64,000 nucleotides of DNA from a virus. Positions 29,984 to 59,461 of the stretch are shown piece after piece (within the stretch, counting starts at the first letter, position 1; every line of letters starts with the position of its first letter). The stretch lies in the IMG/VR virus record IMGVR_UViG_3300044977_000123, positions 1 through 64,000 of that record. One strand, given 5' to 3'. The position numbers and the translations under genes are program-made. The notes beneath the pieces are model-generated. The model had not been told where the DNA came from, did not search any database, and was given only the letters and a program-made list of their open reading frames with translations.

Positions 29984-31060
29984 CATCGGTCGACCGATGC
30001 GTTGCCGATCCGCAGGTACTCGTCGCAGGCCCCGGCCCAGCGGTCCCGCCCCTCATCCTGGTCGCTGAAGAGCCGCCATTCGCCGTACGGGCACTCGTAG
30101 AAGCTGTCCGGGCCGTCCGTGGCGAGCTTGGCTATCTCCACCGCGTCGTCAACGTCGCAGGCCTGCTTGACGACGTTGAGCATGTCCCACGGCTGGAAGC
30201 TTCGGCGCGCACCGAAGACCTCCTGCTGGTGGCCGCCGCTGACCCAGTCCCGGCCCTCGTACACGTCGGGCGTACTCACGACGGGGATGATCTCCCCGCG
30301 CCGGAACGGCCACTCGGGCGGCTCGGTCGGGCCCGGCGTCCACGTGCCGGTGATCACCACGAAGCTGATCCGGTCGAGCGGCACGGTCTGCTGCCCATTC
30401 AGCAGCCACAGCAGTTCCTCGGCCTTGGTGTCGCGGCCGGTCACGTAGTCGAACACTTCGATCCCTCTTTCCCGATCAGGTGCTCGCCGAATTCCAGATG
30501 CGCCCCAACGACCGTCGTCCAGCGCCGGGATGTCCAGCCGCAGTAGCACGACGCCCAGCAGCCATGACGGCCAGTGCGATACAGAGTCGGGTAGTGAGTC
30601 ACGGCCGACTCTCCGGCGTCCAGCAGTCGTCGCGGATCGTCCCGTCCGGCCACCAGTGCGTGCGGAATGCCGACAGCACCCAGGTGCAGGTGCGGCGCTG
30701 CTGATCCCAGTCGTGGCCAGTGGGGACTTCGGCATGGGTTCGCCCGCATCCGGGGCAGAGCCACACGTCGGGAAGTTCTCGGGCCTGTTCCAAGGTGATC
30801 CATGTGGCCTCAATGTCCTCGTCGGCGAGCCAGCGCCGTGCCGCCTCTTTCGCGCGCTCTGGGGTGCGTGCCGCGAGCGCCGTCGACCAGTAGCGCTGCG
30901 CGCCGGGGTTCCGCTTCTTGTTGCGGGCGAGGTAGTACCAGCAGATGTCGCCGAGCATGAAGCCGTAGCGGTCGTCAGGAGCGGGGTCCAGCCAGTCGCC
31001 CGGGTTGAGGTAGGCGTTCTCGTCTTTGATGTACGGGCCCATCACGAACACGTCGGTCAC
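29980..31060 (-). other. hypothetical genes: 29980-30456, 30441-30602, 30599-31060
   Basis: overlapping ORFs, RBS. Confidence 0.55.
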
Positions 31061-31422
31061 GTCGCCTCCTGGTAGGGCGTGGCGAGCGCCGTCAGCACGG
31101 CCCGGACGCGAGTGTCACGGCCGCAGGTGCACTGGGCGTCGACCATCTGGTCACAGTCGCACCAGCCGGTCTCGTCGACCGCGTGCTCCCACCCCAGGGC
31201 CTCGTCCAGCAGGGTCCGCCGCCCAGCGACGTCGGCCAGAACACGGTGCGGGTTGAAGTGTCGCCAGAACTGGTCGGCTGCCGGACCGCCGACGCCGTAG
31301 AAGTCCGGCTCCCGGAACATGTCGCGGGCAGCCATGAGCAGGCCCTGCGCCACGCCGTGGTCACGAGCCAGCCAGTCGCGGACCTGCTTGACCAGCGCGG
31401 CAATCTCCGGCGACTCAGGCAT
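31057..31422 (-). CDS. DUF6221-like protein
   Basis: HFNPHRVLADVAGRR.LL...VLTALATPY. Confidence 0.6.
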   Translation of the reverse strand: MPESPEIAALVKQVRDWLARDHGVAQGLLMAARDMFREPDFYGVGGPAADQFWRHFNPHRVLADVAGRRTLLDEALGWEHAVDETGWCDCDQMVDAQCTCGRDTRVRAVLTALATPYQEAT

Positions 31423-31792
31423 GGGATTCCTCGCTTGGCGCCTCGTTGCGGAACGGTCCGTCGGCCCGCTGCACGATGATCGTCAGGAGTGGCCCAGCCT
31501 TCGGCGCCCGCTCCCCGTACGGCCACGCCGCCGAGCCGTAGCCTGCATGGCTCCAGTCCCGCTCGATGACCCGGTACTGGCCACACTCGTTCGCTCCGGG
31601 TTCGAGCCGCCACTTGGGCGTCCACAGCAGCAGCGTGTCGCCAACCGCAGGCGGCATCAGGAACGGCACGAAGCCGTCCGGCGGCGTGCTGGATGCGGCC
31701 TGGAGCGTGTCGTAGCGGAACTTGCCACCGTCGGCCGGAACACGGACGTAGAACGAGCAGATCGGCGAGAACCGCAGCAGGTCATCGATCAC
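31415..31792 (-). CDS. hypothetical protein
   Basis: overlaps both neighbours. Confidence 0.55.
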   Translation of the reverse strand: MIDDLLRFSPICSFYVRVPADGGKFRYDTLQAASSTPPDGFVPFLMPPAVGDTLLLWTPKWRLEPGANECGQYRVIERDWSHAGYGSAAWPYGERAPKAGPLLTIIVQRADGPFRNEAPSEESHA

Positions 31793-32214
31793 GATGCGCT
31801 CCGCTCCGGGTCGACTTCGGGGTGCGTGAACCGCACGGGCAGTCCGAGGTACCGCGTGTATGAGATCTCCGCCGTGGTGGACTCCCCCACGTAATCGCCG
31901 ACGACCAGCACCTCCTGCGCCATGCGGATCTTCGCGCGGTGCAGGGCGTCCAGTTCGCGCTTCGCCTCGTCCGGGTTCGCAAGCTGCGCGGCCTCCATCG
32001 CCATGTTGACGTGCGGCATCAGCACGATCCGCCCGGCCAGCGACTCGTTCGCCGCAGCCTCGGCCATCTGCGCCTGGAACCGCATCGAGCCGCAGATGCA
32101 GACGACGGTCGGCGTGCGCTTCGTCTCGGCGAGATACGCGGCGAACCGCTCGACCTCGACCTGGTCGCCGGGTTCGAGCTTGGTGCGCGGGTCGTCCCCG
32201 CAGTTCGACGGCAT
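31789..32214 (-). CDS. nucleoside deoxyribosyltransferase-like (Rossmannoid) protein
   Basis: VVCICGSMRF, LHRAKI.MA.EVLVV, YVGEST.AEI.Y. Confidence 0.65.
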   Translation of the reverse strand: MPSNCGDDPRTKLEPGDQVEVERFAAYLAETKRTPTVVCICGSMRFQAQMAEAAANESLAGRIVLMPHVNMAMEAAQLANPDEAKRELDALHRAKIRMAQEVLVVGDYVGESTTAEISYTRYLGLPVRFTHPEVDPERSAS

Positions 32215-32215
32215 G

Positions 32216-33360
32216 TCAGCTTCCCGAACTTCCGGCGGTCGTGGTCATGGAGCGCTCGACGCCGTCGAGCAGCGCGCCCACCGCGCCGGCGAGACCGTCG
32301 TCGAGCTGGGCGTTCAACTCCCCCAGCGGCAGGTTGGTGAGGTTCGGCAGCCAGCCGTCGACGGGCGCGGGCTCGGCGACGAGGGCGTAGCCGGTCCGGC
32401 GGGGCTGGCCGGCCTTCGTCGTTGCGGAGTCGTGCAGGTTGCGGGCGAGGATCCGACGGGGCTGCTTGCCGCTGTGCGCGTCGACCACCTCGGCTCCGTT
32501 CAACCCGGACGTGTAGCTGACGATCCGGATGGTGGGGCCACCGCGCGGATCGCAGGAGCGGTAGATCTGGTCCTTGGTGATCACGGGGTGGCCTCCGTCT
32601 CGATGGGCAGCCACTTGGTGACCGTGACCTCGCGCTGCTCCATGGCGGTCGCGGTGACGGTATCGCCGTGCCAGCCGTGATCGTCGGTTCCGTCGCCACC
32701 GCCGACCTCGAAGTCGCCCATGTCGAGCGGGGCCTCGTACTCGACCGCCCAGGTGTCGCCGTCGTCGTCACTGAAGACCACGCGGCGCTTCTGGGAGTAC
32801 TTCAGGACGGTGATGTGCTCGTCGGCGAAGATGCCGTCCGTCCAGTCGCCCTCGTCGGGGCTGTCCGGGGGCACACCGAGGCCTTCGAGCTCGGCAACGG
32901 TGAACGTGCGGGTGATCGGCATGAGGGTCCTTCAGGTGAGGGTTGACGGGCTCGGTCAGACGTGCCGGAACGTGATGTCGGCGAGCTCGGTACGAGCCTC
33001 CGCGATCGTTGTGCGTCCGTTCGCGAGATCCCCGATGAGTCCGGCGGCGTGGTACTCGCCCTCGTCGGTGGCGTCTGTGAGACGGCTGGCGATCTCGGCG
33101 ATGAGCGCGAGGACATCGCTGTCCGCGTCGGTCTCGCCGTCCTCGTCGTCGAGGTACACGTCGTGGTCGGCGAACGCTGCAACGATCGCCGGGTCGTTCT
33201 TGAACTGCTCCAGCGACTCGTCCTCGGTGTCCCAGTCGCCGTTCTGGAGTGCACCAATGAGGTCGCCGAGGACGCGGGTCTTCATGGCATCGGGGGCGTT
33301 CAGCTCGACGAGTGCCTTGGCGACGGGGTCGAAGATGTCGCCGGCAGAGTTCCAGCCCAT
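32216..33360 (-). other. hypothetical genes: 32216-32584, 32581-32922, 32956-33360
   Basis: RBS GAAGGA, coupling. Confidence 0.6.
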
Positions 33361-33427
33361 GAGGGGCTCCTTCAGGTTGAGGGTTGGCCAGGGCTGCTCG
33401 CACAGCCCCGGTGGGACAACTGCTCTG

Positions 33428-33601
33428 TCAAATTGACGAGTTGAAGCCAGCGACAGCGAGGCGCTCGTCCGGGTTCTCCGCGAGGACCCGGGCGGCCACG
33501 GAGCGCTTGGCCGAGGGGTCGGCCATCTGGGCCAGCGGCCGGCGACGCCTCGGCGGCGCAGTCTCGGCGGGCTCGGGGCGGGTCTGCAGGGTGGCGGGCA
33601 T
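33428..33601 (-). CDS. FxSxx-COOH RiPP precursor-like peptide (57 aa)
   Basis: RBS GGAGG; ends RVL......RLAVAGFNSSI-stop, the family signature. Confidence 0.8.
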   Translation of the reverse strand: MPATLQTRPEPAETAPPRRRRPLAQMADPSAKRSVAARVLAENPDERLAVAGFNSSI

Positions 33602-33618
33602 GATGCCTCCAGTAGTGA

Positions 33619-34455
33619 TCAGGTGTTGGCGGCGAGGAGTTCGCCGTCGAGCGTGGCCAGACGCAGCCGCGCACGCATCGGAACCGGGTCCTTCCCCGGA
33701 ATCGGCCAGTCGTCCGCACGGACCCCGTACACGGGCGGCTCCCAGGCCTCGCTGCCGTAGAAGCGGTAGACGCCCACCCAGTCCGAGTCGAAGTAGCACG
33801 GCAGCAGACCGCCCCAGTTCGGGATCGCCTTCGGCGCACGGGCGTTCGTGTCCTTCAGCTGCAGCCGGGCCTGTTCCAGTTCGGCGCGGTGCCGGGTGCA
33901 ATACCAGTGGACCTTGTGCCAGCCGGTATCGGGGAGCAGCTCGATGGCGTAGTCGCTGGCGTCACTGCCGCACACGCCGAGCCGGTTGCGGAAGTCCGGC
34001 TCCGGCGACGCGGGCTGCTCCTGCCCGGCGAGCTCGAACAGGCTCGGCATGCTGTCCGGTGCGGACGGCTCCGGATACGGCCGCAGCCGGGGGGCGGCGC
34101 AGCGCCGGTACAGCTCGCCGCCCTGGTGTCGGTGCGCGTACAGGACCGGGGACTTGTAGCACGGCGCGTCCCGGACGACGAGTTCCCGAATCCTTGGCCG
34201 GCCGATGCGGTCGACGCCGAGGACGTCCCGGGCGACCGCCCACGGGCTGACTTCGTCCTCGCGGGGCGTTGTGAGCGCGTAGGCGAGGGCGAGGAGTAGT
34301 TCCTTCGACTCGTGGTCGGCGCGCTGGTCCTGGTAGATACGGCGGGCGTAGCGGGCGAACTCGTTGCCGTCGTCGCCACCGCCGCCTTTGCGCTTCCGCT
34401 TCGGCGCGGGGATCTCACGGGCGGGCGCGAGGTGCAGGGCTGCACCCATTTCCAT
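33619..34455 (-). CDS. hypothetical protein
   Basis: RBS AGGAG, GC3 bias. Confidence 0.65.
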   Translation of the reverse strand: MEMGAALHLAPAREIPAPKRKRKGGGGDDGNEFARYARRIYQDQRADHESKELLLALAYALTTPREDEVSPWAVARDVLGVDRIGRPRIRELVVRDAPCYKSPVLYAHRHQGGELYRRCAAPRLRPYPEPSAPDSMPSLFELAGQEQPASPEPDFRNRLGVCGSDASDYAIELLPDTGWHKVHWYCTRHRAELEQARLQLKDTNARAPKAIPNWGGLLPCYFDSDWVGVYRFYGSEAWEPPVYGVRADDWPIPGKDPVPMRARLRLATLDGELLAANT

Positions 34456-34559
34456 CTCCTGGTGATATCAGGTGATTGATCCACTTATTGTCCCACTTCT
34501 GACGCGCCGCCAAGGCCGGTTTGGCGTAAGCCAGAGTGAGAGGTTCGTGCAGGTCAGCG

Positions 34560-34820
34560 CTAGTTCGTCGGCCACAGGAACACGGCCGGGACCGCATCGT
34601 CCGGGGCCAGGTCGTCCTCGCCGTACTCAGGGTCGGCAGCTACCTGCTCCTCAGTCAGGTAGTGCTCACCGGAGTAGGTGCTGTCGGCGCTGTACATCGC
34701 CGTCTCGACCTCGGCGAGCGGCGAGAAACCGTTGCCCTCGCCGTCCTCCGACAGCACAACGATCGTGTCGCCGGGCAGGTCCAGTTCCGCGAGCTCGGCG
34801 CGGAGTTCGTCCAGGGTCAT
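34560..34820 (-). CDS. acidic hypothetical protein
   Basis: RBS AAGGAG; D.EGNGFSPL motif. Confidence 0.65.
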   Translation of the reverse strand: MTLDELRAELAELDLPGDTIVVLSEDGEGNGFSPLAEVETAMYSADSTYSGEHYLTEEQVAADPEYGEDDLAPDDAVPAVFLWPTN

Positions 34821-34853
34821 CGTGCTCTCCTTCGTAGTGGTGCCAGTTGCAGG

Positions 34854-35651
34854 TCAGCCACGACCAGCCGCGACCATCGCCGCGACCGCGATCCAGCCCT
34901 TGTGCCACGACTGATCGAGCAGGTATCCGGCGCCCGGGTCCCGCTTCAGCCAGCCCCGATGCCCAGTCACCGCAGCCAGCTGGACGACGCCGCGCGGATG
35001 CTCGTCGCGCCAGTGGCCGCCCTGCCGGTCGGCGACGTAGTGCGTGACCGCAGAGACGGCGAGAGCAGCAGCTGCTCGGCGCGGGCTCAGGTTGAGACCG
35101 AGCAGCCGGTCGGCAGCCAGGAGCGCGAGGTCCTCGCGCGGCCCGTAGTCGCAGACGATCCGGTTCGCCGGGTAGATCGCCTCAGCAAGGTAGGTCAGCT
35201 GCGGGTCGAGCCGGCTGAGGTCTGCGGCGTCGAGCCACTGCTGTGCCCAGTCCGCCTGCTCGCTGATGAACGAGCCCTTGGATGCGGCGTGCCAGCGGCC
35301 GTCGTAGTGGAACACGATGATCAGAGAGCCGTCGGCCTTGTCGAACACCTCGAACGGCTCGGCCGGGAGCGGCGGCGCGAAGTCGTGGACGCCGTGCATC
35401 GCCGTCACGAAGATCTTCGGGAACGGGAACGCCACGATCCCGCCCGTGACGTCGTCGGCTATGAGGCCCCGGCAGGCCATGGTGACCGGCGTCCAGATGT
35501 GCCCGTACTGGCAGTCCCGGGTGTACGTGAAGATCGACAGCGGCAGGTCGGGGTGGGACTTGCGGGTGACGTGGCCGGCCTCAATCGCTGCAGCCAAGTC
35601 ATCGGGCGGGAACAGGTCGGCCAAGGTCAAGCCGGTCGTCGCGGTGGTCAC
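34854..35651 (-). pseudogene. chimera: N-terminal part of a T4 Rnl1-like RNA ligase fused in frame to a DUF3307-like C-terminus
   Basis: CRGLI, FPKIF, KADGS, ASKGSF, EAIYPANRIV; then THYVADR...LDQSWH; ligase motifs IV/V absent. Confidence 0.7.
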
Positions 35652-35790
35652 GGGGTGCTCCTTGAAGGTTGAGCAGCGCAGGATTGATCGGGACGGGCAG
35701 GGCTCATGCGCTGAGCGGATCAGAATCGGCGGATCGATGATGCAGGCGTATGAGTCATGGTGCACCCCCGGGCGGGGAGATCGGGCGGGG

Positions 35791-36444
35791 TCAGGCGGCG
35801 CGCTTGGCCGCGTTTCGGGTCCGTCGGCGCAGGTTCGCGATCGCGGACTCGCCGACGCCTTCGGTACCAGCCGTGGTGCCGGCGCGCCGGTCGCAGCCCC
35901 AGTGCACTGACGGGGTCTCGCCTTCGTGCCACAGCTCCCGGAACGAGCCCCTGGCTCGCCCGAGGAGGGACCTGTACGTCTGGTCTGCGATGTCGAGCAG
36001 GCGTGCCGCTGAGGGATAGTCGTCCACGGCGGCCAGCGCAGTGAATGCCTCCCGCTGGCGCGGGGTGAGGGCTGCGAGAATCTGCTCCAGGGCGAGCCGC
36101 TCGACGATGCCGTTCTCCGGGCTCGGTGTGGTGCGCCCGGACCAGCGCCAGTACATGGCGAACTTCAGGCCGTTGTTGGTGCCGTCCGACCGTGCTCCGT
36201 GGTGGCGCATACTGTCGCGGACGTCCTGGGCGAGGGCTTGGCGTCCGGCCTCCATCAGCTCGGTCCGCAGCGGCGCCTCGCCGGCCTCGCAGAGACGTTC
36301 GACAATGCCGTGCCATGCGGCGGCGTACAGGTCGTCGCGGTCCCCGGCCAGCCACCACGCCCGGTTGTTCGACACGACCGACCGGGCAAGCTTGTCGAGG
36401 TCGGTGAGGGTCCAGCCGTAGCGGATGCCGTCGGTGGTGGTCAT
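35791..36444 (-). CDS. ECF/sigma-70-like protein
   Basis: DDLYAAAW (region 2-like); LAALTPRQREA...AARLLDI...SLLGRAR (region 4-like). Confidence 0.6.
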   Translation of the reverse strand: MTTTDGIRYGWTLTDLDKLARSVVSNNRAWWLAGDRDDLYAAAWHGIVERLCEAGEAPLRTELMEAGRQALAQDVRDSMRHHGARSDGTNNGLKFAMYWRWSGRTTPSPENGIVERLALEQILAALTPRQREAFTALAAVDDYPSAARLLDIADQTYRSLLGRARGSFRELWHEGETPSVHWGCDRRAGTTAGTEGVGESAIANLRRRTRNAAKRAA

Positions 36445-36457
36445 CGTGTGGCGCCTT

Positions 36458-36808
36458 TCAGGCTGCGCGGTTAGCGCGCTTCTCGGAGTGGCCGTGGGAT
36501 CGGCCACAGCGCTTGCAGGCCCCGACATGGGTGCAGTCGGGCAGCTCAGCGATCCATGGTCGGATGATCAGCGTCTTGGGGTGCATCCCGTGCTCGACCA
36601 TGTGCGCCCGCATAAAGTCGACGTCGTCGCGTTCGAACGACCCGTACTCCATGAGCGCACCCGCGATGGAGATCGCCAGCACCCGGGACTGGCCGCGGCC
36701 TTCGAACCGGGCCGCGTAGGGCAGCCACCAGTTCATGCCGGTACCGACTGCGTTGGCCTTGACCTCGTCGACGATCAGGCCGAACCGGGCGGTCGTCGTG
36801 GTGGACAT
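36458..36808 (-). CDS. hypothetical protein
   Basis: RBS AAGGAG. Confidence 0.6.
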   Translation of the reverse strand: MSTTTTARFGLIVDEVKANAVGTGMNWWLPYAARFEGRGQSRVLAISIAGALMEYGSFERDDVDFMRAHMVEHGMHPKTLIIRPWIAELPDCTHVGACKRCGRSHGHSEKRANRAA

Positions 36809-36848
36809 GCGGGGCTCCTTCAAGAGGCTGGCAGGGATGGGGTGGTGA

Positions 36849-37466
36849 TCAGACGCGGCATGCCCAGCCCTCGGGCTCCTCGGCACTGACGCCGCCGTAG
36901 TAGTTGACGTCGAAGTAGTCGGTGGTGATGTCCGAGCCGTTGTAGTTGTAGGCGCGGTGGATGGTGCGTAGTTCGTCGGCGAGGGCCTTGAGCGCCGGGG
37001 TTGCGACGCGCCGCTCACGGCCGCAGGCGTCTGCCCCGCTGGTCCAGCCCCAGGCCTCGGGAATGTTCCGGATGATGATGTCGATGGAGCCGCCGCCGGA
37101 GTACTTCTGCGTGCGGACGGCGAACTTGATGACGGCTGGCGCGTCGGCGATCGGGTCGGCGATGGCGAGCGCGCCGGGCTCGGCAGCCTTGAGGCCGATC
37201 TTGCGGGAGAGCTTGATGTCGGCGCGCATGAGCTTCGCAATTACGGCGATGTCCCAGATGTTGCGGACGGTGTCGTACTTCGCGCCGTAGGTGCGGTGGT
37301 CGACCCAGCCGGTCGCGGTGAGCCTCTCGCCACCGGTGCGGGCCTTAATGATGAGGCGGGCGAGCATGCGGCGGCCGGCTTCGCGTTCTTCGTCACCGGT
37401 GCGGGGGTGGTCGATGAGCGCCTGGAGGAGCTGAATCTTCTTCGCAGTCTTCGTGGCGGTCATCAT
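36849..37466 (-). CDS. LPD29-like (large polyvalent protein-associated) domain protein
   Basis: KFAVR..YSGGGSIDI...AYNYNGSDITTDYFDVNYY. Confidence 0.7.
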   Translation of the reverse strand: MMTATKTAKKIQLLQALIDHPRTGDEEREAGRRMLARLIIKARTGGERLTATGWVDHRTYGAKYDTVRNIWDIAVIAKLMRADIKLSRKIGLKAAEPGALAIADPIADAPAVIKFAVRTQKYSGGGSIDIIIRNIPEAWGWTSGADACGRERRVATPALKALADELRTIHRAYNYNGSDITTDYFDVNYYGGVSAEEPEGWACRV

Positions 37467-37497
37467 GTCCATCCCCCTGCTGCTCACTGCCTGTTTA

Positions 37498-37576
37498 TGT
37501 ACTTACAGAATCCTCCCCGCGCGCACCCTTGTCAAGCCATACCCCAAGGCTGGATGCTAGATTTGTACTTACAGAA
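37498..37576. promoter_or_regulatory. two TGTACTTACAGAA operators in a divergent promoter
   Basis: identical 13-mers at 37498 and 37564. Confidence 0.7.
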
Positions 37577-37591
37577 ACGAGGGAGGCGATC

Positions 37592-37771
37592 ATGGCCAGG
37601 CCGAAGACTGGGACAACCCCCGTCCGCAACGTCCGCGTACCCGACGGCCTTTGGCACGCCGCCCAAGAGAAGGCCGCCGCCGAGGGCAGAACGCTTACCG
37701 AGGTGATCCTCAGCGCACTCCATCGCTACGTTTCCGCGCCGGCCAAGGCGCCGGCCGATTCCGACGACTGA
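37592..37771 (+). CDS. ribbon-helix-helix regulator
   Basis: TPVRNVRVPDGLW.AAQEKAAAEGRTLTEVI..ALHRYV; RBS GGAGG. Confidence 0.8.
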   Translation: MARPKTGTTPVRNVRVPDGLWHAAQEKAAAEGRTLTEVILSALHRYVSAPAKAPADSDD

Positions 37772-37777
37772 GCCCAG

Positions 37778-39169
37778 CTATGCGGCGGCGCCCGGCGTCC
37801 AGGACGTCGCGAGGCTCCGCAGGCGGCCGAACCGACCTTGGAACGACAGCCAGATCTCCTTGCCCTGCCCGCCGTTGCGGTTCTTGCCGACGATCAGCAG
37901 CACCTTCCCCGCGGTCGGGCCGGTGTCGGAGCCGTCCGCCGCCAGTTCGCGGTGCAGCAGCACGATGACCGAGGCGTCCTGCTCGATCTGCGATGAGTCC
38001 TTGAAGTCCGTGACCAGCGGCTGCCGCCCGACGGCTCCGCGGTTGAACTGGGCGAGGGCGACCACGGGCACGTCGAACTCGTGCGCCAGGCGCTTCAGGC
38101 CGCGCGAGATCCCCGCGACCTCCTGCGTCCGGTTCCCGCCCGCGCTGCCGCCAGGGCTCGGCGAGATGAGCTGCAGGTAGTCGACCAGGACCATGCCCGG
38201 CGGTGTGCCCTGGCCGTGCATCCACCGCACCCGCGCCCGGATCTTCTCGACCGTCAGCGACGGCGAGTCGTCGAGGATGAAGTTGTGGGCGCCGCGCATC
38301 ACCGCATCGACGCGGGCGATCTTGTCCCAGTCGTCGTCGGTGACCTGTCGCCGCACCAGGTGGCTGAGTTCGACACCGGCCTCGGCGGCAGTCAGCCGGG
38401 CGAGGAGTTCCCGGCGGCCCATCTCCAGTGAAGCCACCAGAACGGGCAGGCCCTTCTTGAGTGCGATGTGCGCGGCGAGGTTCATGGCGAACAGCGACTT
38501 GCCGCCGCCCGTCCCGGCGCCGACGACCGTGAGCTCCTTGGGCTTGAACTGCACAACCTCGTTGAGGTCAGGCCACGGCGAGTCGAGGGCGCGCGGATCC
38601 TCCTTTGCGGACAGCTCGTCGATGAACGGCTCCCACTCGTCCGCGACGGACATGGTCTGCGTATCGCCGCCGGCTGCGTCGGCGAGGAGTGCTTGCAGTT
38701 CGCCGAGGGCGGCGTCGAGGACCTCTTCGGGCTCGGCTTCCTTGGCGCGGGCCATTGACGCGAGGCGCTCGCCGATCTCGGTGAGGCGGCGCAGCGTGTA
38801 CTTGCTGCGGACGATGTCGGCATACCACTGGGCGTTCGCGGCGGTCGGAACGTTGTGGACGAGGGTGTGCAGGTAGCCGGGGCCGCCGCAGCGGACGAGG
38901 TCGCCTTGCTTCTCCAGCGCCTTGGCGACGGTGATCGGGTCGGGCTGCTCGCCGCCGGGGGCACCGTGGAGGCTGAGGATCGCCTGGTGGATGAGTCCGT
39001 GGGCACCCCGGTAGTAGTGCTCGGGCTTGAGGATCTCGTCGGCGTCGCTGATGGCGCTGTCGGAGATGAGCATCGCGCCGAGGACGGCCTGCTCGGCGGC
39101 GAGATCGGTGGGGTACGTCGGCTCGGCCGGCTCGGTCTCGTCGTCGTACGGGTCTTCGTGCTGGGTCAT
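37778..39169 (-). CDS. dnaB: replicative DNA helicase, full length
   Basis: AEQAVLGAML N-domain, GAGTGGGKS, SLEM, VDYLQL, LAQFNR, IEQDA, KNRNG. Confidence 0.92.
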   Translation of the reverse strand: MTQHEDPYDDETEPAEPTYPTDLAAEQAVLGAMLISDSAISDADEILKPEHYYRGAHGLIHQAILSLHGAPGGEQPDPITVAKALEKQGDLVRCGGPGYLHTLVHNVPTAANAQWYADIVRSKYTLRRLTEIGERLASMARAKEAEPEEVLDAALGELQALLADAAGGDTQTMSVADEWEPFIDELSAKEDPRALDSPWPDLNEVVQFKPKELTVVGAGTGGGKSLFAMNLAAHIALKKGLPVLVASLEMGRRELLARLTAAEAGVELSHLVRRQVTDDDWDKIARVDAVMRGAHNFILDDSPSLTVEKIRARVRWMHGQGTPPGMVLVDYLQLISPSPGGSAGGNRTQEVAGISRGLKRLAHEFDVPVVALAQFNRGAVGRQPLVTDFKDSSQIEQDASVIVLLHRELAADGSDTGPTAGKVLLIVGKNRNGGQGKEIWLSFQGRFGRLRSLATSWTPGAAA

Positions 39170-40005
39170 GCGGCGTCCTGATAGTCGGGGTGGCAGTGGC
39201 AGGGCTGCGCGAGGGAGAAGCCGTTGGCGTCGGTGACGTCGCGGGTGCGGGTGTCGGGGTCGCAGTCGCGGTCGCCGCACCAGTCGGGCAGGCTGGGAGA
39301 GGCCCGTTGCCGGTCGTCGGCCTGCTTGGCGCGCCAGGTCTGAGCGAGCTCGGGCATGTCGTCGGCTGCGGCACGCCAGAACGCGGGGGTGCGGACCTTG
39401 CACTCGGCGGTGACCCAGGCGATGAACGCCGGTTCGTCGTCCAGGGGGACGACGCCTCGCACGGCTTTCTGGGCGGCAGTGAGTCGGGTGGTGGTTTTGC
39501 TCGCGTCAGCGATGGTCTCTCTCTCGGCGACTGGAGCGGCGGACTGGCCGTCGGCCGGGAGAGGAGAGGTACTTGAGGAGCAAAGAGGAGTAGGGGTCAT
39601 CTGTTGGATGAAGAATCCGGCCGATTCCTCATCTGATGGATGAAGGGTCGTGTTCGATGCTTCATCTGTTGGGTGAAGAATCTCGTCGGCCACTTCGGGA
39701 TCTTCATCTGATGGATGAAGAATCTTGGGGTCCATCACGGGGATGCGGTACCGCGCGGACCTGCCCTTGACGCCTGCCTCGACGACCTCCAGGACACCCT
39801 TGCGGATCAGCGCGCTGCGCAGGTTCGACCAAGCCGGGACGCTCAGGCGCACGCGCCGCAAGATCTCCGGGTCGTTGATCTTCGAGAAGGTGAGACGCGT
39901 CTTCTCGTTCGCGTCCCGCGCCAGGACGATCAGTCCCTTCCACTCCCCCGCCGTGAGGGTGTCCGGGGCATGGTCCATCACCTCTTCGACCAGCTTGATG
40001 CCCAT
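39166..40005 (-). CDS. replication initiator 2 (phage-type)
   Basis: N-terminal wHTH-like region, internal iterons, LPDWCG..CD..TR...PC.CHP C-terminus; coupled to dnaB. Confidence 0.75.
   Translation of the reverse strand: MGIKLVEEVMDHAPDTLTAGEWKGLIVLARDANEKTRLTFSKINDPEILRRVRLSVPAWSNLRSALIRKGVLEVVEAGVKGRSARYRIPVMDPKILHPSDEDPEVADEILHPTDEASNTTLHPSDEESAGFFIQQMTPTPLCSSSTSPLPADGQSAAPVAERETIADASKTTTRLTAAQKAVRGVVPLDDEPAFIAWVTAECKVRTPAFWRAAADDMPELAQTWRAKQADDRQRASPSLPDWCGDRDCDPDTRTRDVTDANGFSLAQPCHCHPDYQDAA
39597..39720. repeat. four iterons TCATCTGWTGGRTGAAG (putative origin 2)
   Basis: copies at 39597, 39629, 39662, 39704. Confidence 0.85.
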
Positions 40006-40103
40006 CAGCGCACCACCGCCGAGCGGTGGTCGTAATGAGCGAGGCGCAGTGACACGGACTCTCCGGCGTTCGTACGGTTCGGGTAGGCGAACTGCAGCGT
40101 CGG

Positions 40104-40331
40104 CTAGCCGTCGGCCTCGGCGAGCGGGTCGGTCATGTAGGCGTCGACGTCCCGGCGCCGGTAGCGCACCGGAGCCCGGATGCCTTTGCCGAGCTTCACG
40201 TAGGGGATGCCGACCTTCTTGTAGCGGTGGTCGGCGAGGGTCTGTGGCTTGAGCCGCGTGATCACGGAGACCTCTTTGGCCGTGAGTAGGTCCTCCGGGT
40301 CTCCGACCAGCTGCGTTGATTCTGTAATCAC
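40104..40331 (-). CDS. excisionase/AlpA-like HTH protein
   Basis: LLTAKEVS..TRL..QTL...R....GIPYVKLG...VRYRRRDV. Confidence 0.8.
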   Translation of the reverse strand: MITESTQLVGDPEDLLTAKEVSVITRLKPQTLADHRYKKVGIPYVKLGKGIRAPVRYRRRDVDAYMTDPLAEADG

Positions 40332-40434
40332 GCGCTTCCTTTCAAAACGTGAGTGCTTCGATGTTAGAAGTATATACGGCAAAGTAGGCCCGTGTCGTTG
40401 GTTGCAGACCTAGATCGCGTGAGAGGCTGCCGCC
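40332..40434. promoter_or_regulatory. AT-rich divergent switch region
   Basis: AT-rich spacer between the Xis-like and XRE genes. Confidence 0.6.
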
Positions 40435-40962
40435 ATGGCAGCGGACGAACCGACGAACAAGCGAAGGGCCAACCAGCTCGGCCCCACAGGGCAAGCAGTC
40501 GCCGTCAACGTCGCCAGAATCCGCGTAGCCCTCGGCCTGTCGACCTACAAGCTGTCCGAGCGGCTCACCAACCTCGGCCGGCCCATCGCAGCCTCCGCGA
40601 TCAGCAAGATCGAGGGCGGCACCCGCCGCGTCGACGCCGACGACCTCATGGCCCTCGCTGTCGCCCTCGACGTCCCGCCGTCGGCGCTCCTCCTGGAGCC
40701 AGTCAGCGAAGGCCCGCTGGTCCTACTCGACGACTACGAGGACATGGCGGCCGTGGTGTGGGACTGGGCAGAGGGCAAAGGGCCTCTTCGTCTGCCCGAG
40801 GACGACGACGGCGAATACTGGAATGCCTGGCAGTCCCGTGCCAAACCGGCGGGTCGGCGGGAATTCCGGGTGACGGCCCGGGCCGAAGCGAAGGCCACCA
40901 CTATCGCCACAGAAGTGCTGGACAGGCTCGCGAAGCACCGGTCGCGCCGCCCCGCCGAGTAG
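40435..40962 (+). CDS. XRE-family repressor
   Basis: NVARIR...GLS..KLS......ISKIEGGTRRVDADDLMALAVALDV. Confidence 0.85.
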   Translation: MAADEPTNKRRANQLGPTGQAVAVNVARIRVALGLSTYKLSERLTNLGRPIAASAISKIEGGTRRVDADDLMALAVALDVPPSALLLEPVSEGPLVLLDDYEDMAAVVWDWAEGKGPLRLPEDDDGEYWNAWQSRAKPAGRREFRVTARAEAKATTIATEVLDRLAKHRSRRPAE

Positions 40963-41016: not shown

Positions 41017-42396
41017 TCAGCCGGCGATGGCCAGCTCGGTGCGTGTGCGGTGAAGGAGGTCCTGGACGGGGATCTCGGCCTTCCAGCGCCTCAGGGCGGC
41101 GGTGTAGTCCCGCACATAGTCCAGGGCGCGCGTGGACTGCACCCGCGACAGGATGTCGACGGCCCGATGCCCCATGTCCAGCCCCTCGTCGAGACGTCCG
41201 GCCTGCAGGTGCGCGGAGCCTACGATAGCGAACCGCATCCCCACCGACCGCGTGAAAACATCGGCCGACATGGTGGCCGCACGGTCGTTCCAAGCAAGCG
41301 CCTCGGCAGGCCGGTGCAGGTCGCGGAACACCTCGGTCGTGTCGGCGGACATTCGGGCATGGGTCATGTAGCTGATCCACGCGGGCTCACCGTCGGGATG
41401 CTCCTCGGCCCGATCCAGCAGCTGCTCGCACTGCGCGACCGCTTTCGCCGCCGCGCGGGCGTCGCCGGCCCGGCCATGCGCACGGGCCTCGATCAGCCGC
41501 GTGAACGCCAGTACACGCGGTGCCGCCGTCCCCTGCGCCCGCTCGTAGGCGCCCTGGGCCATGTCAACAGCCTCCGCCGCATAGCCGCGCAACAGAGTCT
41601 GCAGCGCCATCGTCGTCAGGACATAGCCGCCCAGCTCCACATTCCCGCCAGCCCGCGCCAGAGCCAGGGCCTGGATGAAATGCCGCTGGGCGACATCGTG
41701 ATGGCCGACGTCCACAGCTGACCAGGCCGCCATCCGGGACAGCTCCGCGGTCACCGCGAACAGTTCCCCGCCGATGTCGTCGCTGTACGAGCCGTGGAGC
41801 AGCGGCGCGGCTCGGCGCTGCAGGCAGTCGGTGATCGCGCTGGCCTTCCAGTTCCCGCCGCCGTACTTGGAGTCCCAGGCGCGGGCGTCGTCCGCTGCCT
41901 GCCACAGCTCGTCGAGGTCTGCGCGGCCCACGCGGGCCCCGTCGCGGCGGGCAGTGGCTGCGGCGGCCGGCGTGACGAGCCAGCGGGTGACGGGGGTGGT
42001 GAAGGCGGCGATGGCGAAGGTCTGGCCGAGGAGTTGACGGCGGTTCACGGCGCTCCAGAAGGTGCAGGCGACGCGGACGGCGTCGGCGGGGTCCCTGGAG
42101 AAACTCAACCCCATGTCGGTGCTCGCAGCGGGGAGGCTGACCATGCCGATTTCGGTGACGGTGACCGGCCGGGAGAGTCGTTCACTGAGCGCGACGGCGA
42201 TCAGCGACGGTACCGGGTGGCGCGGCACCATGCCGTAATCCGCCCAGTTGGTGACACTCGTGTACGTGTAGCGCAGGGTCAGGCCCTGCCGCCGGCCGAG
42301 GTGGTTGACCTGCTGGGCCAGCCATGTGCGGCTGGTCTTGCTGGCCTCCAGGAGGCGCTGTAGATCCTGGTTGGGTCCTCGTTGTGCTCGTGCCAT
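41017..42396 (-). CDS. HTH-TPR transcriptional regulator (NsdA-like)
   Basis: GPN..L..LL, LA..VN, LRY...SV..W, SKYGGG, AELSRMAAW.A.D.G....AQRHF.QAL.LA. Confidence 0.85.
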   Translation of the reverse strand: MARAQRGPNQDLQRLLEASKTSRTWLAQQVNHLGRRQGLTLRYTYTSVTNWADYGMVPRHPVPSLIAVALSERLSRPVTVTEIGMVSLPAASTDMGLSFSRDPADAVRVACTFWSAVNRRQLLGQTFAIAAFTTPVTRWLVTPAAAATARRDGARVGRADLDELWQAADDARAWDSKYGGGNWKASAITDCLQRRAAPLLHGSYSDDIGGELFAVTAELSRMAAWSAVDVGHHDVAQRHFIQALALARAGGNVELGGYVLTTMALQTLLRGYAAEAVDMAQGAYERAQGTAAPRVLAFTRLIEARAHGRAGDARAAAKAVAQCEQLLDRAEEHPDGEPAWISYMTHARMSADTTEVFRDLHRPAEALAWNDRAATMSADVFTRSVGMRFAIVGSAHLQAGRLDEGLDMGHRAVDILSRVQSTRALDYVRDYTAALRRWKAEIPVQDLLHRTRTELAIAG

Positions 42397-42594
42397 TGCC
42401 GACCTCCGGGGCCGCACTTTCGGGCTACCGAGCGTAGGCCAATCCGTGGGCGCGCGTGCGGGGTCTGCGAGGAGTTTGCCCCCGTGTTTGCGTGTCCCCA
42501 GGTTACGGGTCGGCGGTTTCCTGATGGTCCGACCGGCTCCCGTACCGTGCTCCAGCCGGCCGCCTCACATCACTTCCAGAGGAGATCACGGCTG

Positions 42595-43599
42595 ATGGAA
42601 AACGTACTGGTCACGGGTGGTGCCGGGTTCATCGGCTCGCACTTCGTCAAGCAGCTGCTGCGAGCCGACGACGTCGCCACCGTGACGGTCCTCGACGCCC
42701 TCACCTACGCCGGACACATCCACAACCTCGGCGAGGCCTTCCTGTCGCCGAAGCTCGCCTTCGTCGAGGGCAACATCCTTGACCGGCCGCTCGTCGAGCA
42801 GCTCGTCGCCCGGCACGACAGCGTGGTGCACTTCGCCGCCGAGTCCCACGTCGACCGCAGCTTCTACGCGGCAGGGACGTTCCTCGCCACCAACGTGCTC
42901 GGCACCCAGGTCCTCCTGGACGCGGCCCAGCGCCACGGCGTCGAGCGCTTCGTCCACGTCTCCACCGACGAGGTCTACGGCCCGCTCCTCACCGGGTCGG
43001 CCGCCGAGGACGCCCCGCTGCGCCCCTCCGTGCCGTACGCCGCATCCAAGGCCGCCTCCGACCTGATCGCACTGTCGTACTGGCAGACCTACGGCGTGCC
43101 GGTGTGCGTCACCCGCTCGTCCAACAACTACGGGCCGAACCAGCACCCCGAGAAAATCATCCCGCTGTTCGCGACACGGCTCCTCAAAGGCGAGCCCGTC
43201 ACCCTCCACGGCCAGGGCCAGCACATCAGGAACTGGGTGCACGTCACCGACAACTGCGCCGGCATCGAACTCGTCCTGCGCGACGGCATCCCCGGCGAGG
43301 CCTACAACCTGGGCGGCGGCACCGATCTGACGAGCCGCGAACTCACCGCGCTGATCCTCGACGCCTGCGGAGCCGACTGGGACCAGGTGACCTACATCCC
43401 GGACCGGCCCGCGAACGACGTGCGCTACTCCATGGACTGGTGCAAAGCCGCCGCTCTCGGCTACAAGCCAACCCAGGACCTGCAGGAGGGGCTGGCGCAG
43501 ACCGTGGAGTGGTACCGCGCGCACCCGGACCGTTGGGCGCCCCAACTGCGCAAGCCCGGCGCACAGCTCCAGCTGTCCGCTCCGACCCCAGGAAGGTGA
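42595..43599 (+). CDS. rmlB: dTDP-glucose 4,6-dehydratase
   Basis: TGGAGFIGS, DALTYAG, HFAAESHVDRS, STDEVYG, YAASK, SNNYGP.QHPEK. Confidence 0.93.
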   Translation: MENVLVTGGAGFIGSHFVKQLLRADDVATVTVLDALTYAGHIHNLGEAFLSPKLAFVEGNILDRPLVEQLVARHDSVVHFAAESHVDRSFYAAGTFLATNVLGTQVLLDAAQRHGVERFVHVSTDEVYGPLLTGSAAEDAPLRPSVPYAASKAASDLIALSYWQTYGVPVCVTRSSNNYGPNQHPEKIIPLFATRLLKGEPVTLHGQGQHIRNWVHVTDNCAGIELVLRDGIPGEAYNLGGGTDLTSRELTALILDACGADWDQVTYIPDRPANDVRYSMDWCKAAALGYKPTQDLQEGLAQTVEWYRAHPDRWAPQLRKPGAQLQLSAPTPGR

Positions 43600-45386: not shown

Positions 45387-46553
45387 TCACCGGATTGCGG
45401 CGTCCAGCAGGACATCGACGAGCCGGTCCGCCGCATCGGGCCGCCCCTGCGACCGAGCCCGCTCCGCCATGACGGTGCGGCGCTCCGGCTCGGCCAGCAG
45501 CGGCGCCAGTGCAGCCCGCAGGACGTCCCCGTTCACCTCCCCGAGCAGCGCGATCGCAGCGCCTGCCCGGTGGAGGTGCTCCGCGTTGTGGGTCTGCTCG
45601 TTGCCCGCAGAGCTGGCGAGGGGAATCAGGACGGCGGCCTTGCCGAGCGCGGTCAGTTCGGCGATCGTGCCCGCACCGCTGCGCGACACCACCACATCGG
45701 CCAGCGCCAGGACATCAGGGAGCTCCGGGCCGACATAGCCCGTGAGCAGGTACCGCGACGCCAGGCCCGGCGCCAGGCTGCTTGTGCGGTCGCGCAGGCC
45801 GGCCAGGTTGCCCGGCCCGCACTGGTGGACGACATTCGCCTGTGCGAGGAGCCACGGCAGGATGCTGCTCACGAGCGTGTTGATCTGCTGCGACCCCTGG
45901 GCGCCACCAGTGACGTAGACCGTAGGCAGCGACAGGTTGAACCCGTACAGGCCCAATGCCTCGACCGCCTTGCCGGGCCGGCCGGTGAAGACCTCCGGCC
46001 GCACCGGGTTCCCCGTGACGACTGCGCTGGCGCGTACGGACTCCGTGAGCAGCGCCAGTGTCGACTCGGAGGAGACCGCGACTCTGGTGGCGACACGCGT
46101 CAGTGCCCGGTTCGCCAGACCCAGGCGGACAGTCTGCTCGTGAATGACGAGCGGCACCCGGCACATCCTTGCGGCCAGCCCGATCGGGACGGCAACGTAC
46201 CCGCCGGTGGCGAGTATGACGTCCGGCTTGAACGCGGCGACGATCGAGCGGGCCTGGGCGACACCCAGCGGCACCCGGCCCATGTCCTTGACGTTCGCTG
46301 GCGAGGCGAGCTTCAGTGGGTTGCTGGACCGTCGGATCTTGCCCGTGGCGACCGGGGCGAAGCGGATGCCCTCTGCTGCGGCGACGCGGGACTCCAGGCT
46401 GTTGGCGACGCCCACCCATAGGACGTCCACGGGCCTGCCTTCGGCGGCGAGTCGGCCTTGGAGGGCTCGTACGGCTGTGAGTGCCGGGTAGGTGTGGCCG
46501 CCGGTGCCGCCGCCGGTGACGATCAAGCGGAAGGTCCGCGAGTCAAGGTTCAC
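45387..46553 (-). CDS. MurG-like GT28 glycosyltransferase
   Basis: TGGGTGGH.YP, GGYV, HEQ, TGNPVR, GGAQGS..IN, SRSGAGTIAEL, EQ.HNA. Confidence 0.88.
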   Translation of the reverse strand: MNLDSRTFRLIVTGGGTGGHTYPALTAVRALQGRLAAEGRPVDVLWVGVANSLESRVAAAEGIRFAPVATGKIRRSSNPLKLASPANVKDMGRVPLGVAQARSIVAAFKPDVILATGGYVAVPIGLAARMCRVPLVIHEQTVRLGLANRALTRVATRVAVSSESTLALLTESVRASAVVTGNPVRPEVFTGRPGKAVEALGLYGFNLSLPTVYVTGGAQGSQQINTLVSSILPWLLAQANVVHQCGPGNLAGLRDRTSSLAPGLASRYLLTGYVGPELPDVLALADVVVSRSGAGTIAELTALGKAAVLIPLASSAGNEQTHNAEHLHRAGAAIALLGEVNGDVLRAALAPLLAEPERRTVMAERARSQGRPDAADRLVDVLLDAAIR

Positions 46554-50136: not shown

Positions 50137-51132
50137 ATGTCCACCTTGACCGAGCAGACGCTCACCCCGGCCAGCGACGAGCTGCGGCACTTCCTGCCGT
50201 GGCTCAACGACGCCGCGCCCACGGGTGTCGCCGAGGCCCCGGCCAAGCCCGCTCTCGCGGTCGTCGCATCGCAGACACCGGAGGAACTCGCGGAACAGCA
50301 GCGCGTCGCGCTGGAGGCCAAGGAGGCCGCAGAGAAGCAGGCCGAGAAGAAGCGCCTGCGCCGCAACACCCGGATGGGCATGGGCGCCATCATCCTGATC
50401 TCCGCCGTCATCACCTACGTCGGCAGCACCAACGCCCACGACCTCCTGATCCGTCACCACACCTCGACCGTCGCCGCGTGGCTGCTCTACCCGGCCCTCG
50501 AAGCCGGCCTCGTCGTGGAGATCCAGATTGGTGGTCTCCTCGCCGAGTACAACCGCAGCGTCCGCTTCTGGGGCGCTGCGTTGCGCGTCGTCACCGCCGC
50601 CTCCGCGCTCACTCTCAGTGCTGCCGGGCCGGCCGAGCTCGGCGACTGGTTCGGGGCGATGTACCACGCCCTCGGGCCCATCGGACAGTTCTTCTTCGCC
50701 GAGTTCCTCGCCCACGCCCGGCCCGAGTTCCGGGGTGCGGCCGATGACATCGAGGAGCGGACGAGTGCCCATCCGCGACCCGTTCAGTCCGCGGCGGACC
50801 GTCACGTGAAGGCGACCCGTAAGCGGACGGCAAAGCGTCCGTCCGCGCCCGGACGAGTCGCGGACGGACGGACGAAGCGCACGGACGAGACACCCGCGAC
50901 GCCGGCCGAGCCAATCGCCGTCCCGGACGACGACGATCTCCTCGTCCGCGCCCATGCCGCGGCGGACGAGCTGGAGCGGACGGACCAACGGCTGAACCGG
51001 GACAACCTCGTCCGGGCCATTCGTGCTGGTGGCGGCACGATCCAGAACAAGGACGCCGGACGGCTCCTCGCCCAGCTACGCAACGAGCGCGGCGGACCGG
51101 ACCTCCGGTCGGTCCGCGAGAAGGGAGCCTGA
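50137..51132 (+). CDS. Spd-like multi-TM membrane protein
   Basis: about 4 TM segments, basic C-terminal region; directly upstream of traB. Confidence 0.65.
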   Translation: MSTLTEQTLTPASDELRHFLPWLNDAAPTGVAEAPAKPALAVVASQTPEELAEQQRVALEAKEAAEKQAEKKRLRRNTRMGMGAIILISAVITYVGSTNAHDLLIRHHTSTVAAWLLYPALEAGLVVEIQIGGLLAEYNRSVRFWGAALRVVTAASALTLSAAGPAELGDWFGAMYHALGPIGQFFFAEFLAHARPEFRGAADDIEERTSAHPRPVQSAADRHVKATRKRTAKRPSAPGRVADGRTKRTDETPATPAEPIAVPDDDDLLVRAHAAADELERTDQRLNRDNLVRAIRAGGGTIQNKDAGRLLAQLRNERGGPDLRSVREKGA

Positions 51133-51133
51133 G

Positions 51134-58800: not shown

Positions 58801-59053
58801 GCTGGCTGCGCCCGCGCCATCCACCGGCCGCCGCGCCCCGGCACCTCGTACGCCTTCCCCGATGCGAGGGGCTCCAGGTCGAGTGCGGCACAGACCCGGG
58901 CGAGCAGGGACTCGGTCTCACCCCGCGTGTCCGCCTGCACCGTCACCATCGCTGCGCTCATGCCCACCATCGTGACTGACCGTCACACCGTTCGCACGAG
59001 GAACGCGAGAAACCGGTCCGCAATCCGCCTGATCCTCCTGTACCGTGGGCGGC

Positions 59054-59187
59054 ATCCAGGTGCGAAGGCGGGTCCTACTTCCACTGTTAATGGGGATGTC
59101 GCGGGTTCGAGTCCCGTCACCGACTTCGGTCGGTGTAGCTCAGTTGGCAGAGCGCCTTGTCGGATCCACCGACCTTGACCTCTGGAT
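59054..59187 (+). ncRNA. yrlA: Y RNA 1 (YrlA-type) with permuted tRNA domain
   Basis: terminal stem ATCCAG/CTGGAT with GGTGCGA/TTGACC Ro site; T arm 59101-117, acceptor hairpin 59118-135, D arm 59136-153. Confidence 0.85.
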
Positions 59188-59204
59188 CAACAACTTCACA
59201 TGCA

Positions 59205-59274
59205 CCTCCCGGTGCGCTGGCCAGCGGCTACTTCTTGGTGAATCACGCCGCAGGCCGACATTGATCTCGGGAGG
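59205..59274 (+). ncRNA. Y RNA 2 (short, no tRNA domain)
   Basis: CCTCCCG-GTGCG...TTGATC-T-CGGGAGG, same Ro-type stem. Confidence 0.7.
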
Positions 59275-59284
59275 ATATGCATCG

Positions 59285-59425
59285 GGGGTGCCCGGTGCGA
59301 CAGCAACGGGTTCATCAATGGGTCGCGGGTTCGAGTCCCGCCCGGTCGGCGCAAGCTGGCCGGTAGCTCAGGCGGTAGAGCAGTTGACTACAACTCCCGT
59401 CGCTGACCTTGATCTCGGGCACCCC
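59285..59425 (+). ncRNA. yrlA: Y RNA 3 (YrlA-type)
   Basis: GGGGTGCCCG/CGGGCACCCC stem with GGTGCGA/TTGATC; T arm 59325-341, acceptor hairpin with GCAA loop, D arm TAGCTCAGGCGGTAGAGC. Confidence 0.85.
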
Positions 59426-59461
59426 ACTGCATGTCTTCCCCTCCACGTGAGGGGTTTTGCT

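Follow-up and report, generated by a model that had tools for sequence, protein, structure and literature searches.

A probable virus-borne orphan FxsA-type precursor gene and its possible action on host Fxs systems

We analysed a window of 64,000 nucleotides, the first 64 kb of a 123,222-bp linear IMG/VR virus record (G000; CheckV completeness 92%), and found in it a 57-codon gene whose predicted product is almost certainly a true FxsA homologue and a new member of the FxsA (FxSxx-COOH) precursor family. On this element the precursor is very probably an orphan. Judged by sequence comparison, there is about an even chance that it is a host-derived precursor, dependent on a host maturase and kept to interfere with or to exploit the predicted TIR/ParA-STAND conflict system Fxs.

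The gene and its membership of the FxsA family

The fxsA-like open reading frame occupies a 257-nt gap separating two minus-strand genes (Table 1), and its product ends in ...VAGFNSSI, followed directly by the TGA stop codon. An earlier sequence-only reading had described a frame of this extent with a good ribosome-binding site and this ending, and the description was confirmed exactly, with 57 aa, a GGAGG motif and third-position GC of the coding type. The GC content at codon positions 1, 2 and 3 was 0.72, 0.62 and 0.88, respectively, with neighbouring genes alike, in a sequence of 69% GC overall. By analogy, Phe53 and Ser55 are the residues where the cross-link of an FxsB-type enzyme would be expected. 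The GC-rich hairpin 3' of the stop codon is kept in two metagenomic relatives (L002 and L003), and its folding energy is unexceptional for its composition (z -1.04). A promoter and terminator scan of positions 30000-40000 returned one promoter-like and one terminator-like site, none of them near the fxsA-like gene and in a number no higher than in shuffles, while Rfam gave no match in 32500-40500. The sequencing runs containing part of the stretch were soil-metagenome DNA only, with no RNA run among those listed.

Endings of the form F-x-S-x-x arise at random, being present in 3 of the 1584 open frames of at least 40 aa in the whole 123-kb record, so the bare ending alone is not beyond chance and the reality of the gene rests on homology. 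Full-length homology to FxsA, retention in metagenomic relatives and a match to the family model all argue for a real gene, and the ribosome-binding site and the GC codon-position pattern likewise speak against a chance frame with a chance FxSxx ending. The probability of such a frame is negligible, and we rejected it on the profile and pairwise homology to FxsA peptides encoded beside FxsB.

The NCBIfam FxSxx-COOH model TIGR04268 matched residues 33-57 of the phage peptide through the end of the profile (E 5.7e-5). The score of 23.3 bits lies below the curated cut-off of 28 bits, so that the model search suggested by the sequence-only reading gave the expected match by E value but fell short by the curated threshold. 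The two closest bacterial FxsA peptides adjoining FxsB scored 27.8 and 26.1 bits on the same model and a Kitasatospora FxsA passed at 29.9 bits; since genuine FxsB-adjoining precursors score 27.8 and 26.1 bits, the cut-off misses the subfamily of the phage peptide. The C-terminus of the peptide also aligns to the end of the profile for SjiA-type FXSXX-COOH peptides (NF040585), yet its 17.1 bits, where the cut-off is 75, place it outside that family. Pfam gave no match to the peptide.

The phage peptide retains all residues invariant across A2, a 12-row alignment of the peptide and its relatives. When the A2 profile was run over 401 Streptomycetaceae genomes, 47 genomes matched at E ≤0.01, and the best matches (78.5 and 77.8 bits; next best 33.7) fell in two of the 401, both followed after about 50 nt by an FxsB of 578-581 bits. 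Against one of these two bacterial FxsA peptides, the phage peptide was identical at 35 of 61 positions (57%) over its full length (E 4e-19), including all of the last 11 residues. It is thus a small peptide with F-x-S-x-x at the extreme C-terminus (FNSSI) and with homology to precursors encoded beside FxsB, and it resembles bacterial FxsA (TIGR04268; maturase FxsB, TIGR04269) in size, in the leader motifs R-R-x-L-x-x-[LM] and R-V-L-x-E and in the tail V-A-[AG]-F-x-S-S-I. The full-length homology to FxsB-adjoining peptides supports the identity that the sequence-only reading had proposed, an FxSxx-COOH-type precursor.

A scan of GTDB with the DNA pattern for R-L-x-V-[SA]-[GA]-F-[NS]-S-x-[IL]-stop gave nine matches. 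Two were 30-31-aa frames in unrelated MAGs; the other seven, in Kitasatospora, Streptacidiphilus and 'Saccharothrix sp. ST-888', all lay directly upstream of an FxsB above its cut-off (7/7). The GTDB scan with profile A1 returned no match. In the two genomes with the closest FxsA, a search for a prophage of the G000 kind found only scattered similarity of the housekeeping type and fxsA itself.

Table 1. Features of the fxsA-like gene and its surroundings in the 64,000-nt window
Feature	Position	Strand	Remark
fxsA-like gene, 57-aa FxSxx-COOH-type precursor	33428..33601	(-)	ATG 33599-33601, stop TGA 33428-33430
Codons of C-terminal F53-N54-S55-S56-I57	33431..33445	(-)	
Ribosome-binding site GGAGG	33606..33610	(-)	4 nt 5' of ATG; invariant among 4 aligned phage copies
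Sole phage stretch with nucleotide similarity to bacterial Fxs loci	33428..33547	(-)	75-79% over 126 nt, to fxsA of two Streptomycetaceae genomes
GC-rich hairpin	33388..33411	(-)	9-10 bp stem, 4-6 nt loop; 17 nt 3' of stop, without U-run
Downstream neighbour, 134 aa, phrog_11183, function unassigned	32956..33360	(-)	RNA-ligase-like gene instead in L002, L003
Upstream neighbour, 278 aa, without family match	33619..34455	(-)	unrelated gene instead in L002, L003, L004
T4 Rnl1-type RNA ligase	34854..35765	(-)	two genes upstream of fxsA-like gene
Weak sigma-70 region-4 match	35791..36528	(-)	24.6 bits, cut-off 25.7
DnaB-like replicative helicase	37778..39403	(-)	head of co-directional block
DUF6221 protein	31057..31422	(-)	with RNA ligase, flanks fxsA position in G402 too

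Absence of the Fxs maturase and the phage neighbourhood

The bacterial Fxs locus runs in the order FxsA, FxsBH, an AAC(3)-like acetyltransferase, FxsC (TIR-like) and FxsT (a KGGVGR ParA-like ATPase with TPR), FxsBH being a radical-SAM/SPASM cyclophane synthase fused to an aKG-HExxH hydroxylase domain. The FxsB-family enzyme MscB forms a three-residue cyclophane from Phe-C4 to Ser-C-beta on F-x-S (PMC11002830; PMC10114670). Kaur et al. placed FxSxx peptides in NTP-dependent conflict systems and suggested a toxin or signal role for the peptide once processed (PMC7159879). In a preprint of October 2026, FxsC is assigned as a TIR active in degrading NAD+, and FxsT as a ParA with an inactive TIR; its authors regard the function of Fxs as uncharacterised and suggest for the peptide a role as antiviral molecule or diffusible alarm (bioRxiv 10.64898/2026.10.19.760177). 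The immune role of Fxs is a prediction from comparative genomics only. In PADLOC, the ParA part of FxsT was the only part to match a candidate family (PDC-M28B), with no match for FxsC and no model covering the peptide.

FxsB scored above its cut-off in 328 of the 401 sampled Streptomycetaceae genomes, so a phage of Streptomycetaceae hosts would usually meet one. Some of these genomes hold several Fxs loci, or two FxsB about 10 kb apart (G091:C1 4,176,994-4,188,855; also G064 and G112), and one cell can therefore hold several FxsA subtypes. The AAC(3)-like acetyltransferase lies between FxsBH and FxsC in both annotated loci (L014 10847-11695; L049 12662-13468), scores 159-162 bits against a cut-off of 270, and may carry out an additional tailoring step on the peptide.

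Throughout the 123,222-bp record, window included, we found neither FxsB (TIGR04269) nor a Radical_SAM domain (PF04055), and homologues of FxsC and FxsT were absent from both the window and the record. A tblastn search of the phage with all called proteins of four bacterial Fxs loci yielded one spurious 34-aa match only, from a non-Fxs flanking protein, and the Fxs-locus proteins gave no tblastn match in L002-L004. The phage precursor has no FxsB beside it and no TIR-like FxsC or ParA/TPR FxsT in a cluster with it, whereas 22 of 25 bacterial peptides lie directly upstream of FxsB, within a 1.5-kb flank, two others being 7.5 and 16 kb away and one at a contig end. Because the maturase, FxsC and FxsT are all absent, the phage locus represents a virus-borne orphan precursor and not an Fxs cluster. 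The orphan status claimed by the sequence-only reading for the 64 kb was borne out on the larger record, which holds no cognate fxsB anywhere.

The alternative that the gene is not an orphan, either because its maturase is encoded in the 8% that the record lacks or because the contig is a chimera with host DNA, draws on the linear and incomplete state of the record, and is very improbable. In 22 of 25 bacterial loci the maturase gene lies within 1.5 kb of the precursor gene, yet here both flanks consist of phage genes with homologues in related phages, and nucleotide similarity to Fxs loci is confined to 126 nt of fxsA. Moreover, the relative G402, which is 100% complete, has neither FxsB nor a radical-SAM domain.

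Among the predicted products of G000 are a large terminase, a portal, a tape-measure protein and tail-fibre proteins. No isolate phage in the collection has a portal more than 30% identical to that of G000, indicating that the virus has no cultured close relative. The fxsA-like gene belongs to a series of small genes on one strand that extends from the helicase (39403) to 30599, and the placement of the gene inside a phage, as the sequence-only reading had it, held up on the co-directional block with its DnaB-like helicase, sigma region-4-like protein and RNA ligase. We infer that the run fits an early or replication region, its timing being judged by gene content only. Outside the window, G000 carries a large serine recombinase (G000:C1 107451-107897 (+); Resolvase domain 61.5 bits, 577-aa frame), and G402 too encodes a large serine recombinase together with a tyrosine-recombinase match; with these recombinases lysogeny is possible, and the phages may be temperate.

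RNA-repair-type genes gather near the peptide gene. These are the T4 Rnl1-type ligase of Table 1, a phrog_850 'RNA-binding protein' at 59045-61162 (+) and, in L002 and L003, a second ligase of the RLIG1 type (PF17720) directly 3' of fxsA (L003 10238-10831 (+)). RNA ligases are classic phage answers to host anticodon nucleases, and the stretch around fxsA may therefore be a counter-defence island. Elsewhere in the window we observed a GDP-mannose-4,6-dehydratase/epimerase-type enzyme (42382-43599 (+)) and a MurG-like family-28 glycosyltransferase (45387-46553 (-)), which may together serve to modify DNA or the cell envelope with sugars; the dehydratase gene shows 70-73% nucleotide identity to genes of two Streptomycetaceae genomes. 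The window also encodes an FtsK/SpoIIIE-like protein (51023-53242 (+); phrog_12531, E 6e-90). ARAGORN called a tRNA-SeC (anticodon TCA) at 39629-39719 (+), where Rfam found no tRNA at E up to 0.1, and this is probably a false call.

Orphan copies in related phages and selection on the gene

We searched 50,697 isolate phage records and 72,556 plasmids by tblastn with the phage peptide and the closest bacterial FxsA, and neither collection gave a match. When IMG/VR records other than that of the window were scanned, neither profiles A1 and A2 nor the DNA pattern for the C-terminus gave a match. A search of IMG/VR with A5, a broader alignment of bacterial FxsA, matched 17 stretches, two of which were confirmed (G402 and G403). 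The G402 peptide (record of 175,260 bp, 100% complete) ends in ...EVAAFQSSI and scores 19.7 bits on TIGR04268, below the cut-off, as does the G000 peptide with its tail ...LAVAGFNSSI; the G403 peptide (60,917 bp, 83% complete) ends in ...EVAAFNSSI and passes the cut-off at 28.6 bits. Both new records are without FxsB and without any radical-SAM domain, and no Fxs-locus protein matched in the loci taken from them.

The early region of G402 is collinear with the window from 40.9 to 16.1 kb; here too, fxsA is flanked by homologues of the RNA ligase and of the DUF6221 protein. G403 and G000 show amino-acid identities of 78% in the terminase, 63% in the portal and 70% in a minor tail protein, and have other genes in common. 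By these sequence comparisons, G402 and G403 are kin of G000. A survey of orphan copies had been proposed with the sequence-only reading, and these two further related phages, with orphan FxsA of other subtypes, strengthen the observation of an orphan precursor.

Over the last 45 aa, the number of residues identical to the best bacterial type was 31-32 for G000, 31 for G403 and 23 for G402, compared to 16-21 between different phage subtypes. G000 and G403 are thus closer to bacterial types than to each other, which points to separate captures or replacements from hosts rather than a single ancient capture; G402 stands out by little, its 23/45 being barely over the phage-to-phage range. In the overall reading to which we give about an even chance, a group of related soil actinophages would have acquired the FxsA gene, and none of the other Fxs genes, from hosts resembling Streptomycetaceae.

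A word-based search found five relatives of the phage peptide with 76-91% identity, all metagenomic. A profile search of 1.84 billion representatives gave eight proteins at E ≤0.001, comprising one from the close-relative clade, six short peptides with 37-51% identity and the same tail, and a protein of 2165 aa (P0011) matching 22 profile positions. On TIGR04268, ten relatives (4/5 of the close ones and 6/6 of the distant ones) scored 17.9-23.7 bits, all below the cut-off. Three metagenome loci carrying the gene (L002, L003 and L004) all showed phage context; L003, from a 33-kb contig, is collinear with the window across about 17 kb (window 23.9-41.0 kb). The reading frame and the downstream intergenic stretch (33358-33613) are 85-86% identical to L002 and L003, and the genes on either side differ as listed in Table 1.

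Among three phage copies, nine of the last 11 codons vary synonymously, including switches between Ser TCN and AGC, and only the final residue changes (I/L). The dN/dS ratio over the whole gene was 0.35-0.43, on the basis of about 20 substitutions per pair. These results show that the amino-acid sequence of the peptide is held constant while the codons drift, and that the gene is under selection and mobile among phages. At the 5' end the pattern is of another kind. Across window positions 33500-33613 (the ribosome-binding site and roughly 35 initial codons), the nucleotide sequence hardly varies among four aligned phage copies, with at most one synonymous change per pair in the first 14 codons and 8-9 in the last 22; this could reflect recent recombination or an RNA-level constraint.

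Possible action on host Fxs systems and comparison with known systems

That the phage peptide acts on the host Fxs system, in either direction, appears fairly likely from these comparisons, and counter-defence specifically, the version we prefer, comes close to an even chance without quite reaching it. Presumably only a host FxsBH could mature the phage peptide, giving a Phe53-Ser55 cyclophane, possibly with hydroxylation in addition. With its leader motifs and core kept, the peptide should be accepted by an FxsBH of the matching host type and yield the same product as the host peptide. The phage would in this way supply a look-alike of the host's own peptide, a hypothesis close to the mimic or decoy that the sequence-only reading had suggested. 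The candidate targets are FxsC, the TIR-like and predicted NAD+-degrading effector, and FxsT, with its ParA-like ATPase, inactive TIR, STAND module and TPRs. The look-alike may replace the host peptide once host expression is shut off, so that the FxsT/FxsC switch would stay silent, or it may saturate FxsBH and the receptor of the peptide and so blunt the response. The phage would benefit if the peptide is a 'keep-off' ligand of the FxsT/FxsC switch or if the maturase and receptor are flooded. STAND proteins are usually activated by their ligands; should FxsT be activated by the mature peptide, a phage with an identical copy would harm itself, which counts against counter-defence. Structure prediction for a complex between the phage peptide and FxsT (G135 protein, residues 613-1432) scored 0.00 and speaks for neither side. 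A narrower and rather doubtful form of the counter-defence proposal is host-matched RiPP-precursor mimicry, in which each phage would copy the FxsA subtype of its own host, the host radical-SAM enzyme would mature the copy, and the FxsT/FxsC TIR suicide switch would be silenced after host expression is shut off.

The main rival to counter-defence is that the phage boosts an antiviral or alarm peptide. Here the phage would exploit the host Fxs, the FxsBH-matured product either fending off competing phages (by superinfection exclusion or lysogenic conversion) or serving the phage as a density signal. We consider this unlikely, although the phage core is identical to the host type, so that the product should be the same molecule, and the 2026 preprint proposes an antiviral molecule or diffusible alarm as the Fxs peptide (bioRxiv 10.64898/2026.10.19.760177). 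The recombinases of G000 and G402, which make lysogeny possible, would also suit exploitation. However, the phage carries no receptor and no other Fxs part, nothing points to secretion of the peptide, and its gene lies among replication-type and RNA-repair genes, away from the recombinase. It is more improbable still that the product is a small unmodified protein acting independently of Fxs on another target, or a nearly neutral passenger from hosts. Phage genomes do hold many small captured genes, both neighbours of this gene differ between relatives, as at a mosaic spot, and dN/dS over the whole gene is only moderately low. Nevertheless, leader motifs of the FxsB-recognition type and the core are retained in three separately derived subtypes, the core residues stay fixed despite synonymous turnover, and chance does not readily explain why kin phages would have captured this one tiny gene repeatedly.

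Our search of a literature library found no report of a phage-borne FxsA in the articles themselves; supplements could list viral copies. The main text of the 2026 preprint, considered apart from its supplements, contains none of the words 'mimic', 'decoy' or 'counter-defense' (bioRxiv 10.64898/2026.10.19.760177).

Fxs occurs in about four of every five sampled Streptomycetaceae genomes, and the chemistry of its enzyme family is known while its biological role is only predicted. Phages that repeatedly take the precursor alone, in versions tracking bacterial subtypes, argue independently for a role of the peptide in conflict between phage and host, and the phage fxsA, a single 57-codon gene, provides a simple experimental handle. 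If counter-defence is true, it would represent a new class of anti-defence factor dependent on a host maturase; if the peptide acts as an agonist, phages would be using a host RiPP pathway against rivals. Host-matched mimicry, if true, would make FxsA a labile 'all is well' ligand of Fxs, and the phage copy would be the first case of an anti-defence factor in the form of a RiPP precursor on which a host enzyme acts.

T4 Dmd and the pseudo-ToxI RNA of phage PhiTE are phage-encoded look-alikes of the small component of a host defence system. The likeness to the phage FxsA is in logic only, in that the phage provides the small 'keep-off' part of a host suicide system; the difference is that the FxsA part would be a RiPP precursor activated by a host enzyme. 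Arbitrium AimP is likewise a small phage-encoded peptide, a signal processed to a short C-terminal product, but arbitrium phages encode their own receptor, whereas G000 has none and its peptide is copied from a host system. Prochlorosin precursors are RiPP precursors encoded away from their maturase and served in trans within the same genome as the enzyme. The phage FxsA resembles them as a precursor without an adjacent enzyme, and differs in that the precursor is viral and the enzyme would come from the host.
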